Source of the DNA: a virus
Virus record (IMG/VR): IMGVR_UViG_2974521666_000001
Reading direction: 5' to 3' (one strand)
Length of the DNA: 64,000 nt
The translations under genes were made by a program, and so were the position numbers. Below, one piece after another: positions 4,926-51,163 of this stretch (the stretch's first letter is position 1; the number at the start of each line of letters is the position of its first letter). The notes beneath the pieces are model-generated. The model was not told the DNA's origin. It worked only from the letters and a program-made list of their open reading frames with translations, and did no database searches.

Positions 4926-5264
4926 ATGTCTCGAGTGATTCGAAACGACCACCTGTGGACTGATGAAGAGGTGGCCTACAAGCTGGCCCGGTGCCTGGGG
5001 CACGAGGTTGCAGCGAACCGTAAGATGTTCGGTCCCGGTGGTCCTCGTGAGGGGCAGGCCCCTGAGCCTGAGGACGACGAGGACGACGGCGTTACGCTGA
5101 GCCTGGATCAGGACATCTACGAGCACGTTCTCAACCTGAAGGTGGAAGACCTGAAGGCAGAACTGAAGCAGCACAGCCTTTCTACTCGTGGCAACGAGCA
5201 AGAGCTGCGGTCCACGCTGGCCCAGTACCTCCAGGATACAAGGGATGCCAACGACAACGAGTGA
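4926..5264 (+). CDS. SAP-domain protein (112 aa)
   Basis: ATG at 4926 follows GAAGGGGGA. The C-terminal segment LNLKVEDLKAELKQHSLSTRGNEQELRSTLAQYL fits the SAP helix-loop-helix DNA-binding motif. An acidic DEDDEDD linker is present. Confidence 0.45.
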   Translation: MSRVIRNDHLWTDEEVAYKLARCLGHEVAANRKMFGPGGPREGQAPEPEDDEDDGVTLSLDQDIYEHVLNLKVEDLKAELKQHSLSTRGNEQELRSTLAQYLQDTRDANDNE

Positions 5265-5613
5265 GCTTGTAGCTCTAGTCAACCGTCACCTTCCGACAGA
5301 CGCCAAACTGTCGGAAGATGATGGTGGCTATGGCTGGACAGACCAGTACGTAGAGGAGTTGCTCTCTACGGGTTTGAAGCCAGCTCAAGTCGTGAGGTTC
5401 TTTTGGTATCAGCGTACACAGGAAACTGCTGAGTACCTAGACCTTTCAAAGCCGTTGTCCCAGATCCATAGGCAGGCTAAGGAAATGCTTGCCTACTGGG
5501 ATACGGTGATACAGACCAACCCTGACGGCATGGAGCCGCTGGATCCCAGTGCTAACCAAAACCGTCACAAGAACATCACTTTCGGAAGCATTGAGAGGCC
5601 GTGGTCGAAATGA
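5245..5613 (+). CDS. Head-to-tail adaptor (connector) protein, putative
   Basis: ~120 aa, positioned after the capsid gene; ATG at 5245. Confidence 0.4.
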   Translation: MPTTTSELVALVNRHLPTDAKLSEDDGGYGWTDQYVEELLSTGLKPAQVVRFFWYQRTQETAEYLDLSKPLSQIHRQAKEMLAYWDTVIQTNPDGMEPLDPSANQNRHKNITFGSIERPWSK

Positions 5614-42988: not shown

Positions 42989-44151
42989 TCCGGTCCTCTA
43001 GGGCAGCTACCGAATTGGGGATTAAGTAGCCCCACTACCATCCTCTGGTGAAGAAGATTGCACGGCCTCCCCGTACAGCCACGCAATGTCTCCCCAGTTC
43101 GGTAGCTCTAAAGGGTAGAGAGACATCGACACTCAGCACGTATTGAGTAGCCCCTCGGCAAGCTGAAAACGTCTGTCTCTCTACTCCTTAGGGCAGGACC
43201 TGCCCTCCAGTGACCGGGGTACGCACCAGCGAAGAGTCAAGTACAGTCCCTCCAAGCCTGGAAGACCCAGTAGCACAGAGCCTCTGCCCCGGTACACGGG
43301 AATTGTTCTTACACAGTTGAATATACTTCGAGCCTGATCGATAGGCAGTAGCAATGCTGCTGAAAGGCCGGTTGATCCCCGGTCGCCTAGTAATCCTAGG
43401 TAACTCAGGCAATCCAGTACCTTCGCCCATCTGAACGGTGGTGGGACGCAGGCAAGCAGAGCGGGCCAGGCCGATACGGTGAGGCCAGTCGTGTACGCAG
43501 CGACTCAAACGCTATAAGCTGCAAGCCTGATGGTTGGTACATGGGAGGGATACATAGTGCGAGTAGGCATACAAGTGCGGTATCCATGGAGGCCCCAAGG
43601 CGTGGTTGGCGAATCACGTAGGAGCTGAAGAGCACAAGTAGCGGGCACGTGAAAGTGCGATGGCGTGGTGCATTCTGTGGCTCAAAAGGCGACGGAACAC
43701 CTGGGGCAGCACGTCGTCAGATCGTATGGCCTGGTCTCCCTAAGGGACCACCAAAGCGCTCAGGCAAGAGCACTACCATTGGGAGGTAGCAACGGTGTAA
43801 AAGCCGTTTCCGGTTCGACTCCGGCAAAGCAAAAGTCTGTCCCCGCTAGCAACGAAAGTACCCTAATCCCTAGGGCTTACGCCAACTAGGGCACCGGAAG
43901 GCTCGCAAGGCCGACTGGTGTTGCTAGACAAAGTAGTGCAGGTAGGGGGAGGCCACCCCTGACCGAATCGAAACGTCAGCGAGTAGTTCGCTAGTGTAGG
44001 TAGTGGTTCCGCCAATCAAACGGGACCGGGTACGGTGGCTGCAAGTGGGAGCTTGCGGACAAGGAACTAACACATAAGGTTCTGAAAGGCCACTGGGATT
44101 AGGGTCAAGTCTACGCCCTTTCCACCCCTAACAACAAGAGGATGGTAACTC
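42989..44151 (+). other. 1.16-kb non-coding, lower-GC, highly structured region (candidate large structured non-coding RNA or replication/packaging element)
   Basis: No plausible ORF on either strand; many local hairpins (GGGCAGGACCTGCCC, CCTAGTAATCCTAGG, GGTCTCCCTAAGGGACC and others). Confidence 0.4.
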
Positions 44152-45418: not shown

Positions 45419-46249
45419 ATGCCGACATGGGATGAAGCTGTACAGGATCCAGATATCGTTGCGTTGGATGCCATTTCGCCGCACCCAAACTTTATGGTCT
45501 ACGGGGCCTCTGGCTGTGGTAAGACGGTGCTGGGAGGCAGCGACGACAAGGTGCTGTTCCTCACGTGTGAGCCAGAGGGTTGCATCAGTGCAAAGCGCAT
45601 GGGCAGCAATGCAAGACAGGTGATCATCCATCATTGGGACCAGCTGGAAGAGTGGTACGACAAGCTATCCGAGTGGGCCGAGGACGGCACCGGCATCCCG
45701 TTCAACTGGATCGTGATCGATACCATTAGTGACGCACAGGGATTGTTGTTCGACAAGCTGCTGGATGAGAAGGGCCTGGACGTAGAGGACTGGCCCACCT
45801 ACCGCAAGAACCAGAAGATACTGCTACGCTACGTCAAGAAGATGAACCAGCTGCCGGTCAACCTGCTCTGGTTGGCATGGGACCGTAAGGAAACCGACGC
45901 CGACGGTGAGGACTTCTTCTGCCCTGAGATTCACGGCAAGGGCTACTCCATTGCAATGCAAGTGGCAGCACAGATGACCTCGTACGGTTACATGCAGGTT
46001 CGCACCGAGCGCAAGCAGGTGATGAAAGACGGTAAGGCAGTAGTCAATCCGAAGACTAAGAAGCCACGCACAACACTAGAGACACATCGCTATATATACT
46101 GGCAGGACATTCAAAGCTTGAGAGGCAAGGACCGAACGATGGCGCTGGCCCCGTTCACAAAGGACTTGACTCTCAGAGACATTCGCCTGAAGGTTGAAAA
46201 GGCCTTTGCCGGCGAAGCTGAGAAAACCGATGAGAAAGTAGGGAACTGA
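45419..46249 (+). CDS. RecA-like AAA ATPase (Sak4-type recombination/annealing ATPase)
   Basis: Walker A VYGASGCGKT and Walker B-like WIVIDTISD. Confidence 0.55.
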   Translation: MPTWDEAVQDPDIVALDAISPHPNFMVYGASGCGKTVLGGSDDKVLFLTCEPEGCISAKRMGSNARQVIIHHWDQLEEWYDKLSEWAEDGTGIPFNWIVIDTISDAQGLLFDKLLDEKGLDVEDWPTYRKNQKILLRYVKKMNQLPVNLLWLAWDRKETDADGEDFFCPEIHGKGYSIAMQVAAQMTSYGYMQVRTERKQVMKDGKAVVNPKTKKPRTTLETHRYIYWQDIQSLRGKDRTMALAPFTKDLTLRDIRLKVEKAFAGEAEKTDEKVGN

Positions 46250-46950
46250 TGCCCAAGGTGATGAAGCCGCCCACCGATTACGATGACTCGGCGACCAACA
46301 CAGGCGGTGATTGGTACGATGGCCCACCGCCAAAGCCGGGCCTGTACAAGGGCGTTGTGAAGAAGATGCTGCTGTCCAAGGTCACCCAAGGGGAGAAGAA
46401 GGGCGAGCAGCGAATCATGGTGATCTGTGAGATCTCTGAGGGCAAGTTCAAGGGAGCCGGTGTCTCCAAGTGGCTTCAGCTCACCCAGCAAGGCAGCCCG
46501 TGGGTCAACCAGTTCCTCCATGCCCTCACCGACGGCAGCGAAACCCAGAAGGCCGCAATCCGCAAGGCTTTCAAGGAGATTGGCTTTGCCGTCGACGATG
46601 CAGATGCCAAGAAGCGCTACCCGATTGTCCGTATCGGCAAGAAGACCAACCCGATTGGCCGCCCAATTAGCTTCGTGACGAAAATGCGTACGGACGACCA
46701 GGGAGTCGAACGGGCCGAAATCAGCCGCTTCGTCACGCCTCGTGCTGCGGATGACGATGAGGACGAGGACGATTCGGACGACATCTTGACGGCCGACGAC
46801 GACACCACAGAGGACGACGGCGACGAGGGCAACGCCGACGACACGTTCGGTGACATGGACTCGGACGACGATGCAACCGATGGCGATTCGGAAGACGAAG
46901 AGTTGCCGGCTGATGACTCAGACGACGAGGGTGAGCCCTGGGAAGTCTGA
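46249..46950 (+). CDS. Hypothetical protein with a long acidic C-terminal tail; possibly an SSB-like partner of the ATPase
   Basis: Position after a Sak4-like gene; ~80-residue D/E-rich tail; no motif recognised. Confidence 0.3.
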   Translation: MPKVMKPPTDYDDSATNTGGDWYDGPPPKPGLYKGVVKKMLLSKVTQGEKKGEQRIMVICEISEGKFKGAGVSKWLQLTQQGSPWVNQFLHALTDGSETQKAAIRKAFKEIGFAVDDADAKKRYPIVRIGKKTNPIGRPISFVTKMRTDDQGVERAEISRFVTPRAADDDEDEDDSDDILTADDDTTEDDGDEGNADDTFGDMDSDDDATDGDSEDEELPADDSDDEGEPWEV

Positions 46951-47024
46951 TCCCATGCGGCGCTAGGGGAGTCGGGGCGGTAACTGACTCGTGGTAACTC
47001 GGCTCCCCTAGTGCCCCAATCCAA

Positions 47025-47978
47025 TTGAACAAGGAATACAACGTGATTTGGGTTAGCCTGCATACACATTCGACCTTTTCGTACGGGGACGGGTACGGGC
47101 CGGTGGGCGTTCACGTTGACAGAGTTGCAGACCTTGGCATGACCGCGTTGGCGCTCACAGAGCACGGTAACTGCTCCAGCTGGGTCCAGCTCGAAAAGCA
47201 TTGTAAGCGTAGGGAAATCAAGCCAATCTTTGGCCTGGAGGCCTACGTTGCCTCAGAGAACCAGCCACGCAAGTTCCACATGATCCTTCTCGCGAAAGAC
47301 GATGAGGGACTACACAATCTGAACTGCATCATTACTGAGAGCTGGAAGACACTCGGGACTACTAGCAAATCTAAGTTTCCCACCGTTCACGCACCAGTAC
47401 TGAGGAAGTACAATCGTGGCATCATTGCTCTGTCGGGCTGCGCGGACGGCCCCATCTCTTGCATCCTGTTGGGTGGAAAGTCATTGGGTGACAAACGATT
47501 GGAACCCAGAGACGGGGACATTCAACGAGCCAGGCGTGCAATTGAAAGGTTCCAGGCGATATTTGGCGACAGGTATTACCTTGAGACCCAGCGATTTTCT
47601 GGTCTCGCTCGCACTCGTGCTCTCAACCCGTGTTTCGAGGAACTTAGCAACACAACGGGAGCACGAATGGCTGCTACTGCTGACGTGCATTATCCCTACC
47701 CGAATGACAATGAGATGCAGCGCATCTTGCACGCGGCTCACCGTCAGAGCACTGTTGAAGTTACTGACGCTAACTGGGAGTACGACATACTGCTCACGTA
47801 CCCTGAAACCGATAGAGAGGTATACAGAGACCTTGTGGGCACGGGACTCAGCACTGCGGGAGCCAAGGCCGCTGTTGAGGCCACGGCGCACATTGCAGAC
47901 CAATGCAATGTAGAGCTGCCCAAAGCGCCGCCACCGAAATATGTACCGGGGGAAAGAGATTGGGAGCCATGGACGTAG
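47025..47978 (+). CDS. dnaE: DNA polymerase III alpha subunit (DnaE), N-terminal PHP-domain fragment of a split gene
   Basis: PHP-domain motifs (LHTHSTFSYGDG ... ALTEHGN). The start is TTG 47025 or, more likely, GTG 47043 after AAGGAA. Confidence 0.65.
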   Translation: MNKEYNVIWVSLHTHSTFSYGDGYGPVGVHVDRVADLGMTALALTEHGNCSSWVQLEKHCKRREIKPIFGLEAYVASENQPRKFHMILLAKDDEGLHNLNCIITESWKTLGTTSKSKFPTVHAPVLRKYNRGIIALSGCADGPISCILLGGKSLGDKRLEPRDGDIQRARRAIERFQAIFGDRYYLETQRFSGLARTRALNPCFEELSNTTGARMAATADVHYPYPNDNEMQRILHAAHRQSTVEVTDANWEYDILLTYPETDREVYRDLVGTGLSTAGAKAAVEATAHIADQCNVELPKAPPPKYVPGERDWEPWT

Positions 47979-48355
47979 AGCGTGTGGACGCACACGAGGA
48001 GCTAGTTGAGAAAGTTAAACGGCTCCTAAGGCGTAGGGGCTGGGACATCCTAGTCATTGCGAGACTAGGCGGTTGGGTGGAGGCAGTGGACTTCTTTGCC
48101 TTCAAGCCAGATCGGGGCGTGGCAGGCATCATCTGCCACGTCAAAGAGGGGCAGGACTACTGTCTGCGGGCCGCACAGGCTGAACGCTGTGTAGACTGGG
48201 ACAGCCCGGCATACGTGGTCTATAGCAACGGGGCCACGATACCGGCCAAAGACCTAGCAGCACATGGGCGCAAAGAGCAGTACGCAGGCCACCACCCGTT
48301 CTACAGGTACATCAGGACCAATAGGGTGTACACGTTCAACGAGGTGTTCCGGTGA
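47969..48355 (+). CDS. Free-standing small nuclease-like protein inserted between the two dnaE fragments (putative PD-(D/E)xK/Hjc-like homing-type endonuclease)
   Basis: ATG overlaps the stop of dnaE part 1 and its TGA overlaps the GTG of dnaE part 2. WDILVIARLGGWVEAVDFFAFKPDRGVAGIICHVKEG resembles a restriction-endonuclease-fold core. Confidence 0.4.
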   Translation: MDVERVDAHEELVEKVKRLLRRRGWDILVIARLGGWVEAVDFFAFKPDRGVAGIICHVKEGQDYCLRAAQAERCVDWDSPAYVVYSNGATIPAKDLAAHGRKEQYAGHHPFYRYIRTNRVYTFNEVFR

Positions 48356-50664
48356 CGAAACCTGTACTGTCAGAGCAGGAGACTGAGAAACTCTTCAAGT
48401 TCTGGCTTGCCGAGGGGTTCAAGTTCCGTAGGCGCACTAGCAAAGAGATGCAGGCCGAACCTAAGAAGTACCAAGAGCGCCTGCGCATGGAATTCGGCGT
48501 AATCCGTAGCGTACCAGGGTATATCGACTACTTTCTCATGGTGAGCGACTTGGTGCGTTGGGCCAAAGACAATGGCATTCTAGTGGGTCCAGGCCGTGGT
48601 AGTGCAGCCGGCAGTCTGTGTTGCTGGCTTTTGCGTATCACCGAGATTGACCCACTGCTGTACCCCATGCTCTTTGAGCGGTTCCTGGACCCTACGCGTA
48701 CAGACCCTCCAGATATCGATATCGACTTTGAGGACGAGAGGCGTTGGGAGGTTATTCAATACGCCCAGGAAAAGTACGGATACGATAGGGTTGCTAACAT
48801 TCTGACGTTCACCCGGTACAAGGGCAAGAACAGCCTGGATGACGTAGCGCGCGTATACGAAATCCCAGAGTGGAAGATTGAGAACATCAAGGGTAAGCTG
48901 GTGGAGCGGCAAGACGGCCACCCACGGTTCTCCATGACACTGCTTGACACCTTCGATAGCTACGACGACGTTGCCGAAACAGTTAGGCGTACACCTGAAT
49001 TGCAGTACGCGCCACGGCTGGAGGGCATCAACGGGCAGTCCAACTACCGTACGGCCGGTATCCACCCCGCTGGCATTGTGATCAGTGGCGTACCGTTGAC
49101 TCAGATTACAGCCACCTACGAAAAGCAGAGTGGTGCCCAGCGCGGAAGCGGCGTTGCGTACGACAAGAAAGACAGTGAGTACCTAGGTCTTCTGAAGGTT
49201 GACTTCCTTAGCCTAACTACGCTTACCGGCATCCGAGCGACACTAGAACACCTACAGTGGGTGCGTGACCGAATCGGCATGACTATCGAGGAGTTCTACC
49301 AGATACCACTAGATGACCCTAAGGTTTTCGAGGCGTTTCGCGCTGGTGACGTATTGGGCATATTCCAGTTTGAGGGTGTGGCAACACGGCGCGTGCTCAA
49401 AGGCGTACAGCCAGATAAGTTTATGGACCTGGTAGACGTAAACGCACTGAGCCGCCCTGGTGGCGACGATACGGCGTACATCAAGGCCAAGAGCACAGGC
49501 CAGCTGCCAGAGCCGGTCCACCCCACAGTTGATGACCACATCCAATGGACCTGGGGCACTATCGTTTACCAGGAACAGATTCTTCTAATCCTTAGGGACT
49601 TTGGAGGATTCGCGCCGGCTGAGGTCAACCGCATTAGGAAGATCATCTCGGCCAAGGAAGACTCAAGTGTCTTCAACGAGTTCCTCGAAAGGTTCGTGGA
49701 AGGTGCTGCGTCTCACGGCGTTTCACGCGAGAAGGCCGTGGGTGTGTGGCAGAAGATGGTCAACGCTACAGGGTACGCGTTCAACATCAGTCACGCTGTG
49801 TGTTATAGCGATACGGCCTACCGTCAGATGTGGCTTAAGGTGTACTACCCTGAGTTCTACCTAGGGCAGCTACTCAAGTGTCCCGACACAGCAGAAGGCT
49901 TGGAGCGCCGTAGGAAGTTGATCGTGGAGGCCGAACGCAAGGGTATTAAGGTCAATAGCCTGGATCTGCATGAGTCACAGGCAGGCTGGAGCTTGCGCGG
50001 CGGCAGCCTGTACGCTGGCTTTACAGCCGTGAAGGGCATTGGCCTCAAGACCGCTGAGAAGATTGTCCAGTGGCGTGATGAACACAAAACAGAGGCTCTT
50101 GAGTGGTCTAGCCTTACAGCCGTTTCTGGCATTGGTGACGGCAGAGTAAAAGTGATGCGCCAGTTCGCAGAAGACGATGACCCGTTTGGCGTGCTGGCCA
50201 CCAAACGCCTACTTGATAGCATACGTAGGGAATTTGAGGCAGGCAAATTTCCTGGTGTTCCAGAGCCGACGCACGTCAGCATCGACATTGTGGAAGAAGA
50301 TGAGTACGTAGTCTTTATGGGCGTGCTGCGCAAGAAGACCTACAAAGACACTGTGCAGCAGCGTCTTAAGTACGGGGGAGACGGCCTCACCCGAGAGAAA
50401 ATCCTAGAGGAGCTAGATGAACCGCACCTACTGAAGTACGCAACCCTGGACGTTGACGACGAGTACGACGAGCCAATACGCTTGCGGGTGAGCCGGAAGA
50501 AGTACCCACAGTACGCCGGTCTGATTGCCAACGCCCGCGCTGGTGTGGACGTAATCCTGGTGACAGGCTACGTGACTCACTTTGGAGGCTTGGCCATTCA
50601 GGTCAAGGAACTAATCGTAATCAATCCGGAAGAGGATGAAACACAGGATGACTTATCGTTCTGA
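48352..50664 (+). CDS. dnaE: DNA polymerase III alpha subunit (DnaE), polymerase-core fragment of the split gene
   Basis: YFLMVSDLVRWAKDNGILVGPGRGSAAGSLCCWLLRITEIDPL (Pol III alpha palm signature), followed by finger and HhH regions. Confidence 0.8.
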   Translation: MTKPVLSEQETEKLFKFWLAEGFKFRRRTSKEMQAEPKKYQERLRMEFGVIRSVPGYIDYFLMVSDLVRWAKDNGILVGPGRGSAAGSLCCWLLRITEIDPLLYPMLFERFLDPTRTDPPDIDIDFEDERRWEVIQYAQEKYGYDRVANILTFTRYKGKNSLDDVARVYEIPEWKIENIKGKLVERQDGHPRFSMTLLDTFDSYDDVAETVRRTPELQYAPRLEGINGQSNYRTAGIHPAGIVISGVPLTQITATYEKQSGAQRGSGVAYDKKDSEYLGLLKVDFLSLTTLTGIRATLEHLQWVRDRIGMTIEEFYQIPLDDPKVFEAFRAGDVLGIFQFEGVATRRVLKGVQPDKFMDLVDVNALSRPGGDDTAYIKAKSTGQLPEPVHPTVDDHIQWTWGTIVYQEQILLILRDFGGFAPAEVNRIRKIISAKEDSSVFNEFLERFVEGAASHGVSREKAVGVWQKMVNATGYAFNISHAVCYSDTAYRQMWLKVYYPEFYLGQLLKCPDTAEGLERRRKLIVEAERKGIKVNSLDLHESQAGWSLRGGSLYAGFTAVKGIGLKTAEKIVQWRDEHKTEALEWSSLTAVSGIGDGRVKVMRQFAEDDDPFGVLATKRLLDSIRREFEAGKFPGVPEPTHVSIDIVEEDEYVVFMGVLRKKTYKDTVQQRLKYGGDGLTREKILEELDEPHLLKYATLDVDDEYDEPIRLRVSRKKYPQYAGLIANARAGVDVILVTGYVTHFGGLAIQVKELIVINPEEDETQDDLSF

Positions 50665-51163
50665 AGTAGTAGACAAGGCATTTCAGAAGGCCCTTGAGAC
50701 ACTACGCGGCTGGGAGAACGTTCACAGCGCCGTTGTGGACTTTGGCCTGGGGGACAGTGCCTCTCGAGAGCTGCCCCACGACAAGGTAGTGACAGATAAC
50801 GTACCGCTTGACGACGGGGCAAACGCTATCGGCAGCTACGTTGTTGGCACGGCACCGGTCCATGAGATCGTTCACCCCTTTGACGACCGGATACAGGGTG
50901 CTCGTATCTACAAGAGCGAAGGGAAGCATAGGGTCCTATTGGATCTGGACTGCCCACACGTGTACGTTCCCAGCAGCACACCGGGCCACGGGCACTTGAT
51001 CATTGATGTGCCACAGGACTGGAACACCTACAAGCGCTTGCTGCAGCTGTTGGGAGACATGGGGATTCTTCAGTACGGCTACGTGGACGCCAGCTTCAAG
51101 CGGGAGGAAACGTGGCTCCGAGCACCTGGAGTGCCCAAGAGCCAAGGAGGTATGGGCCTGTGA
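50648..51163 (+). CDS. Hypothetical protein (171 aa)
   Basis: GAGGATGAAACACAGGATG start context overlapping the dnaE end. Confidence 0.35.
   Translation: MTYRSEVVDKAFQKALETLRGWENVHSAVVDFGLGDSASRELPHDKVVTDNVPLDDGANAIGSYVVGTAPVHEIVHPFDDRIQGARIYKSEGKHRVLLDLDCPHVYVPSSTPGHGHLIIDVPQDWNTYKRLLQLLGDMGILQYGYVDASFKREETWLRAPGVPKSQGGMGL

Follow-up and report, generated by a model that had tools for sequence, protein, structure and literature searches.

The split dnaE locus of Mycobacterium phage Send513: a two-gene polymerase at a recurrent actinophage gene slot, with a predicted nuclease-fold protein encoded between its halves

The viral record IMGVR_UViG_2974521666_000001, a 64,000-nt stretch of DNA referred to here in its entirety as the window, is 100% identical to Mycobacterium phage Send513 (Cluster R, Papyrusvirus), whose record coordinates are the window coordinates plus 7547, and it carries a DnaE-type DNA polymerase gene in two pieces with a small open reading frame (ORF) between them. 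The first piece, gp72, encodes the PHP domain, the last piece, gp74, encodes the polymerase core, and the ORF between them is gp73 (Table 1). The ORF list and the raw sequence place each of the three in a different frame. The ATG of gp73 (47969-71) lies inside the CCA-TGG (Pro-Trp) codons of gp72, the TAG of gp72 is at 47976-78, giving an overlap of 10 nt, and the TGA of gp73 overlaps the GTG of gp74 within GTGA. A preliminary description made from the sequence alone had reported both overlaps, which are seen directly in the raw sequence; its coordinates for gp73 were also right, and only its length of 129 aa needs amending, because that figure counts the stop codon. The gp73 ORF occupies the entire gap, leaving no non-coding flank. 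The overlap geometry is a direct observation, whereas coupled expression is suggested by it: the three genes are probably translated from one transcript by coupling of termination to reinitiation, and gp73 would be co-expressed with the polymerase through its start and stop overlaps. Promoter-like and terminator-like sites occurred at or below chance in a scan.

Taken jointly, gp72 and gp74 possess the PHP ligands, palm Asp motifs, fingers and HhH of a C-family polymerase of the DnaE type, and Send513 dnaE is truly encoded as two separate genes, one for the PHP domain and one for the core. Pfam identifies gp72 as PHP (E 1.8e-36) and finds DNA_pol3_alpha (2.7e-73), the finger domain (4.4e-36) and HHH_6 in gp74. 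The nine PHP metal-ligand positions (H7, H9, D16, H41, E66, H79, C133, D214 and H216) are invariant in gp72 and its relatives in an alignment of 10 split and unsplit proteins, and the gp74 translation shows the catalytic Asp motifs PDIDIDF and KVDFLSL. On the full-length DnaE profile NF004226, gp72 covers positions 6-285 and gp74 covers 291-849; on PHROG 405 they cover 42-325 and 332-890. Because the covered spans abut, the break is a clean one at the PHP/palm boundary and nothing has been lost. The ORF list, Pfam and the DnaE profiles therefore agree with the earlier division of dnaE into a PHP-domain ORF and a polymerase-core ORF. The intact motifs, the strong purifying selection and the existence of split alleles without an insert suggest that gp72 and gp74 would come together without a covalent bond, forming a polymerase whose PHP (proofreading-type) subunit is detachable. 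Both halves are annotated as DnaE-like in some GenBank records, for example that of Rope. The GenBank records of Send513, Candle, Zenon, Nilo, Riparian, MontyDev and Weiss13 name gp72 "DNA polymerase III sliding clamp (beta)", and Rope and the RefSeq copy alone label it as a DnaE alpha fragment; since Pfam and NCBIfam both recognize the PHP domain of DnaE, the sliding clamp label is, on profile evidence, a propagated misannotation and should be corrected in GenBank.

The three-ORF layout is shared by 12 of 12 Cluster R records at 98-100% identity (10 named phages, two of them counted twice as GenBank and RefSeq copies), and consequently the split is not a sequencing artefact. Compared with Rope or Papyrus, Send513 shows 21-22 synonymous and 5 non-synonymous codon differences in gp72, 5-7 and 2 in gp73, and 33-42 and 0 in gp74. 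The 12 records and the mostly synonymous differences exclude the frameshift or sequencing error that the preliminary description had named as a possible cause of the split. An intron, which it had also named, is excluded as well: an Rfam E-value scan of 46500-51000 matched no intron family, and no structured group I or II intron RNA flanks the ORF at the gp72-gp74 locus. An intein is equally absent, there being neither an in-frame insertion nor N- and C-intein halves on gp72 and gp74. When set against the unsplit proteins of Adjutor and P3.1, gp72 is longer at its C-terminus by about 6-8 residues and gp74 carries no intein-length extension; the gp72 C-terminus and the gp74 N-terminus have only about 6-10 residues beyond those of unsplit relatives.

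Table 1. Features of the split dnaE locus and its neighborhood in the window
Feature	Position	Strand	Description	Basis
gp72	47025..47978	+	Longest ORF from TTG 47025, 317 aa; GenBank start GTG 47043	
Junction cassette 1	47948..47978	+	Purine-rich gggggaaagaga, D-W-E-P-W codons (47958-47972), gp73 ATG, gp72 TAG	Sequence
gp73	47969..48355	+	ATG start; 129 codons with stop, 128-aa protein	
gp73 residues	H9 47993-95; D41 48089-91; H57 48137-39; K59 48143-45	+	Also Y64, Q70, W77	
Junction 2	48352..48355	+	GTGA: gp74 GTG overlaps gp73 TGA	Sequence, GenBank annotation
gp74	48352..50664	+	GTG start, 770 aa; polymerase core: palm, thumb, fingers, HhH	
gp71	46249-46950		233 aa; between the AAA_24 ATPase gene and the PHP gene	
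Interval between gp68 and gp69	42989-44151		About 1.16 kb; no annotated gene	

What kind of protein is gp73? Pfam returns nothing for it, even at E<=10, NCBIfam returns only noise, profile searches of the PDB with phmmer and hmmsearch return no nuclease, PADLOC returns nothing, and among the PHROGs it matches only its own orphan family, 17644. Neither tblastn against 50,697 phage records nor a word-indexed search of 5.8 billion proteins detected anything outside Cluster R. Five small homologs were found by a full HMMER scan of 1.84 billion cluster representatives and a sixth by profile search, so that the gp73 family comprises seven clusters, namely Cluster R and six metagenomic lineages, with homologs of 126-130 aa whose identity to gp73 is 23-45% according to the comparison made. 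H9, L12, W25, G50, H57, Y64, Q70 and W77 are invariant in the family, position 41 is always acidic (D/E), and at position 59 six of the seven members have Arg in place of Lys. Strand 3 reads GIICH-(V/A)-(K/R) in all seven, and positions 53-59 contain no acidic residue. An alignment of the seven sequences gave a usable structure model, whereas single-sequence AlphaFold2 was useless (predicted local distance difference test score, pLDDT, of 46).

The gp73 model exhibits the alpha-beta-beta-beta-alpha-beta core of the PD-(D/E)xK fold. In structure comparisons its best scores are with three structures of the junction resolvase Hjc (11.0, 10.8 and 10.5), the fusellovirus nuclease D212 (10.6), the homing endonuclease I-Ssp6803I (9.7), Hje (9.5) and VRR-NUC (8.9). 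The preliminary description had seen a restriction-endonuclease-like segment in gp73; the nuclease-like fold stands, with Hjc as the closest fold to the model. The protein has neither the canonical (D/E)xK motif nor a match to a nuclease sequence profile. Compared with the sequence models of PD-(D/E)xK, Hjc and VRR-NUC families, gp73 gave no match, and an hhalign comparison with three Hjc sequences (the Hjc sequence used was checked against PDB 1hh1) gave E 0.019 and a probability of 2%, a weak result in which D41 of gp73 aligns with Hjc D42 and the register of strand 3 against Hjc E55/K57 is ambiguous. Archaeal Hjc (PDB 1hh1, 2wcw, 1gef) uses E12, D42 and E55-x-K57, whereas gp73 has H57-x-K/R59 and no strand acid. 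I-Ssp6803I is a PD-(D/E)xK homing endonuclease (PDB 2ost; reviewed in PMC3384342), unlike which gp73 has neither the canonical motif nor membership of a sequence profile, and it likewise differs from the viral Hjc relatives, SSV D212 and VRR-NUC, in having no Pfam or NCBIfam match. In sum, gp73 belongs to a new small family and is a genuine protein under selection, with a predicted Hjc/I-Ssp6803I-like PD-(D/E)xK fold and a non-canonical, His-rich site. The chemistry of a seven-cluster family that combines a fold of this predicted kind with a histidine-rich site is worth following up. A group of large tandem-repeat proteins (P0002, P0004, P0006, P0008, P0010, P0012 and P0013) was rejected as gp73 relatives, their scores being spurious sums over repeats; they are up to 5,693 aa long and reach E 6e-26 against gp73 residues 47-105, with about 30% identity over about 37 residues per repeat and the pattern G.A.I..H...G......Q....WD....VV, a resemblance that is probably spurious.

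The junction between PHP domain and core is split in many phages and is filled in many ways. About 590 phage records match PHP. Comparison with unsplit relatives, as the preliminary description had envisaged, was possible: dnaE is intact in Adjutor (Cluster D), Nocardia P3.1 and Indlulamithi. It is split at the PHP/core junction in Onyinye and Leopard, with an unrelated 92-aa ORF in the gap, in Microbacterium phage Sparcetus, where the gap holds a 63-aa Cys-rich ORF, and in Gordonia phage LittleFella, which has no insert and a 4-nt overlap. A scan of IMG/VR contributed 80 further loci (loci are denoted by L numbers here); tree counts cover 80 sufficiently complete loci, among which the PHP/palm junction is split in 30 and fused in 50, with gaps of -12 to 1039 bp in the split loci. 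The slot is empty in LittleFella and in L021, L025, L077 and L094. L021, whose PHP and core proteins are 78% and 68% identical to those of Send513, is the sister of Send513 in a neighbor-joining (NJ) tree, and L022 (PHP 76%, core 72%), which is too incomplete for the tree, has an unrelated 112-aa ORF in the slot. Occupants that pass Pfam gathering thresholds are HNH_3 with a helix-turn-helix domain in L040/L042 (50.4 bits), Endonuclease_7 in L052 (50 bits) and L054 (48.7 bits), and a methyltransferase in L090; weaker HNH-like ORFs are found in L053 and L078, and Cys/His-rich ORFs in L027 and L032. The gp73 family occupies the slot in Cluster R, L010, L011, L012/13, L014, L100 and L102.

The slot thus displays the sporadic presence and absence at a fixed site among syntenic relatives by which homing endonucleases are recognized, and the several unrelated endonuclease genes within it mark it as a homing-endonuclease hot spot in which gp73 fits as a further occupant. 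Well-described essential phage genes broken by endonucleases are few (T4-type nrdA, topoisomerase and gp43), with one endonuclease family per site. Here, one junction recurs in about a third of the surveyed related actinophage loci, and no fewer than five unrelated occupants enter it at one and the same nucleotide, reusing a single embedded start codon. In Cuke and Fowlmouth dnaE is split elsewhere and without an insert. This second split site, found in L006 (5001-8236, Cuke), L009 (3980-7170, Fowlmouth), L029 and L030, is about 600 aa in, in the palm/fingers region (...SKVCELTRQAS/MTGITLEE..., the slash marking the break), and has a 4-nt gene overlap and no DWxPW tail.

That tail is the most consistent feature of the PHP/core junction. 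Split PHP genes end in the motif [E/D]-D-[W/Y/L/M/H]-x-[P/A/E]-W, counted as [DE][WYLMH]x[PAE]W and represented in Send513 by ERDWEPWT; about 26 of the 30 split loci have it, and the roughly 50 fused loci all lack it. With few exceptions, the gene that follows in a split locus begins at an (A/G)TG in the last two tail codons (CCA/CCG-TGG and similar, encoding Pro/Ala/Ser-Trp), a position common to core, HNH, EndoVII, methyltransferase and gp73-family genes. A few codons upstream of the embedded start lies a purine-rich stretch, which is a possible ribosome-binding site. In the empty L021 the core itself starts at the embedded codon (ccGTGGTGA), the insert-less junction of the L021/LittleFella type reading ...GATTGGGAGCCGTGGTGAC...; in Send513, where the sequence directly before the insert is ...CCGTGGTGA, the embedded codon within CCATGG is the start of gp73 (ccATGGacgTAG) and the core restarts on the gp73 stop. 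The shared embedded start means that inserts join at a single nucleotide position and take over the translational coupling signal of the core. The possibility that the motif pre-existed in fused genes, which were then split by a single nonsense mutation, was rejected, the motif being absent from all of about 50 fused linkers. GAT encodes the Asp of the motif 18 times out of 29, against 163 of 410 elsewhere in PHP ORFs. Conservation of the tail may lie in the mRNA, and the tail might also serve as a docking peptide, by analogy with the mobE-derived tails of split NrdA in Aeromonas phage Aeh1. Loci with the tail motif include the window (47948-47978), L019 (4900-4990), L021 (3520-3600), L025 (5900-5960) and about 25 more.

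In all seven clusters the gp73-family gene is directly 3' of a stand-alone PHP gene whose product is 74-78% identical to gp72, and wherever the contig reaches far enough a polymerase core 58-68% identical to gp74 follows downstream. The layout of L102 is exactly that of Send513, and in L010, L011, L012/13, L014 and L100 one to three further small ORFs share the gap, among them a Cys-rich one that recurs. This Cys/His-rich ORF, with the pattern C..C.H..DDH.YH..FC..C.C..W.C..CGG, lies between the gp73-like gene and the core in L010 (4098-4271), L011 (about 1700-1850), L012 (about 1560-1700), L013 (about 1320-1460) and L014 (729-908); L100 has a different, 110-aa Cys-rich ORF (5223-5555), and Send513 and L102 have no such ORF. 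Pfam gives nothing for the recurrent ORF. It could act as a zinc-binding partner to the gp73-family gene, or it could be one more mobile passenger.

Pairwise identity is 25-44% within the gp73 family and 71-86% among the PHP genes, and the family evolves about three to four times faster than its neighbors. It is under purifying selection, as indicated by the gp73-like genes of L011 and L012, in which the proportion of non-synonymous differences (pN) is 0.18 and that of synonymous differences (pS) is 0.71. In the same pair of loci (PHP spans 285-1235 and 1-939, gp73-like spans 1226-1618 and 1106-1498) the adjacent PHP genes have a pS of only 0.44, and the higher synonymous divergence of the insert hints that insert and flank have had separate histories; either the insert was exchanged independently of the flank or the PHP genes were homogenized. 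Distances between gp73-family members correlate poorly with those between their PHP genes, a comparison made uninformative by the star-like PHP tree.

How might these observations be reconciled? Our leading explanation, on which we are evenly divided, is that DnaE is made from two coupled cistrons, gp72 for the PHP domain and gp74 for the core, split at a recurrent actinophage junction that acts as a cassette slot, and that gp73 is most likely a free-standing homing-type endonuclease, or a descendant of one, that recognizes junctions lacking the insert and was copied into a dnaE already in two pieces. The DWxPW tail codons of the PHP gene would supply the start, and possibly the ribosome-binding site, for whatever gene follows, and gp73 would be, or have been, a nuclease directed at junctions without an insert, its gene spreading through recombinational repair in the manner of free-standing phage endonucleases (PMC2988022). 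The homing-endonuclease footprint proposed in the preliminary description accordingly survives as far as the hot spot is concerned, with HNH_3 and Endonuclease_7 genes at the same junction, and is not supported where it casts gp73 as the splitter, given the split alleles that lack the insert.

Several points weigh against this explanation. The catalytic signature of PD-(D/E)xK nucleases is missing from gp73, the acidic residue of (D/E)xK being absent in every member of the family; the position equivalent to Hjc E12 in helix 1 is hydrophobic, with an invariant His one helical turn earlier; and none of the nuclease sequence profiles in Pfam (PDDEXK_*, Hjc, VRR_NUC), NCBIfam or the PDB set matches the protein. 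Because the (D/E)xK acid is missing, the Lys is mostly Arg and the helix-1 Glu position is hydrophobic, catalysis by gp73 is uncertain. The family is limited to one clade and one site and is fixed across Cluster R, and its GC content of 0.58-0.59 differs little from the 0.52-0.57 of the flanks, with the result that no recent movement is visible; an origin in foreign DNA, looked for in base composition, likewise left no signal. No sign of co-conversion was found in the flanks, split alleles from different clades having no excess identity there, and for the same reason the idea that a split cassette spreads by long co-conversion tracts is unsupported. Lastly, the order of events set out below, in which the split came first, rests on an unbootstrapped NJ tree and parsimony.

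A more far-reaching version of the cassette-slot explanation, which we put forward tentatively and consider open to real doubt, is that the junction between PHP and core is a dedicated cassette-exchange site. A single short conserved element would encode the DWxPW tail, furnish the following cistron with its ribosome-binding site and start codon, and act as a recognition or recombination target, at which the unrelated nuclease genes of the HNH_3, EndoVII and gp73 families would be swapped at one nucleotide position; gp73 would found a His-variant (H...D...H-x-K/R) family of Hjc-like homing endonucleases, and the tail would serve as a docking peptide in the reassembly of PHP domain and core.

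The main rival, somewhat improbable in our estimation, holds that gp73 is not selfish, and is instead a domesticated accessory factor, either a structure-specific nuclease acting on flaps, forks or junctions or a nuclease-fold protein for DNA binding or assembly, co-translated with gp72 and gp74. Tight translational coupling to both polymerase genes would suit such a factor, as would the persistence of an intact gp73 with invariant residues and a ratio of non-synonymous to synonymous substitution rates (dN/dS) of about 0.1 across lineages whose PHP proteins are about 25% different. The closest folds to the model are junction resolvases, the surroundings of gp73 are a replication and recombination module with a Cas4/RecB-like nuclease and an AAA_24 ATPase, and the site of gp73 is non-canonical. 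However, the split polymerases of L021 and LittleFella have no insert and that of L022 is accompanied by an unrelated ORF, so gp73 is dispensable for the polymerase; bona fide HNH and EndoVII genes sit in the same slot in other phages; and gp73 evolves faster than its neighbors. Cluster R phages also encode a RuvC-like resolvase, which speaks against the accessory role, and on this ground the notion that gp73 is the only resolvase of the phage was rejected.

A second rival, which we think distinctly unlikely, is that invasion by the gp73 gene itself broke an intact dnaE in two, in parallel with mobE in Aeh1 nrdA. Close relatives such as Adjutor, Nocardia P3.1 and Indlulamithi are unsplit, the tail motif is confined to split alleles in the manner of the mobE-derived NrdA tails, and the modeled fold of gp73 is that of a nuclease. 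The tree also favors a fused ancestor: on a midpoint-rooted, unbootstrapped NJ tree of the PHP domain and the first 260 core residues the split state is scattered, and Fitch parsimony requires nine changes from a fused root, the alternatives being 10 independent splits when fusion is disallowed or 14 fusions when splitting is disallowed, so that about 9-10 transitions are involved. An ancestral split followed by two fusions, as 11 genomes had suggested, is not upheld by this 80-locus tree. What disfavors invasion by gp73 is that at least four clades have this junction, complete with tail and embedded start, around a gap that is empty or differently filled, whereas the gp73 family lies within one sub-clade, which itself holds the split yet empty L021. 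From this distribution gp73 most likely entered an already split junction; the phylogeny thus points to a gene copied into a dnaE that had been split beforehand. An earlier endonuclease may have made the split, and gp73 specifically is not implicated.

A third rival, an artefact or other element (a frameshift or pseudogene with a spurious out-of-frame ORF, an intron, or a whole or split intein), can be given virtually no weight, having in its favor only the bare fact that a gene is interrupted and against it the same organization in the 12 independently deposited Cluster R records and in 7 metagenomic lineages, a start codon for each piece, the excess of synonymous over non-synonymous changes, gp73 homologs at 25-44% identity with a confidently predicted fold, three reading frames without intein-half residues, and an ORF that fills the gap without any Rfam intron match.

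The closest precedent is Aeromonas phage Aeh1, in which nrdA is split by the free-standing HNH endonuclease gene mobE, a case of "genes in pieces" (PMC3045599, PMC2988022); other precedents for phage genes split by endonucleases are described in PMC3045599, PMC2677866 and PMC2988022. As in Aeh1, an essential gene of nucleotide metabolism or replication has become a pair of genes, each translated on its own, that flank an endonuclease-type ORF; the fragments bear short tails that are missing from the unsplit protein, and neither RNA nor protein splicing is involved. In Aeh1 the tails that split NrdA gained from mobE serve for docking (PMC3045599). The two systems differ in that MobE is an HNH enzyme, whereas gp73, a putative nuclease, is predicted to have a PD-(D/E)xK fold, and in that the dnaE slot can be empty or hold several unrelated occupants, all reusing one tail-embedded start. 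The fractured genes of PMC2677866 likewise comprise a phage replication enzyme in two pieces, an endonuclease-like ORF between the pieces and insert-associated regulatory elements, but gp72 and gp74 have no intein halves and their products must join non-covalently. Cyanobacterial split DnaE (dnaE-n and dnaE-c, with a split intein) also uses two genes for one polymerase; there, however, the break is in the fingers, the genes are far apart and the products are trans-spliced, unlike the PHP/palm break, adjacent genes and absence of an intein in Send513. A literature search found no paper on the Cluster R dnaE split or on gp73.

The detachable PHP subunit proposed for this C-family polymerase would amount to a natural experiment on communication between PHP domain and core. 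The findings should interest phage and homing-endonuclease specialists and overturn nothing. Cluster R phages are SEA-PHAGES isolates that infect Mycobacterium smegmatis and can be engineered by bacteriophage recombineering of electroporated DNA (BRED).

Two further observations concern the neighborhood. The interval between gp68 and gp69 (the Cas4/RecB-like exonuclease) contains no annotated gene, and the homologous interval of Rope is likewise unannotated. The gp71 gene upstream of gp72 is conserved in L010 (61% identity), and L100 has a gene of similar size in the same position; RefSeq and PHROG 9460 call it a methyltransferase, a label for which the sequence gives no obvious support, and it has no Pfam match. 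The C-terminal third of gp71 is extremely acidic (DDDEDEDDSDD...DSEDEELPADDSDDEGEPWEV), and in its sequence this acidic tail is reminiscent of single-stranded DNA-binding (SSB)-type proteins.

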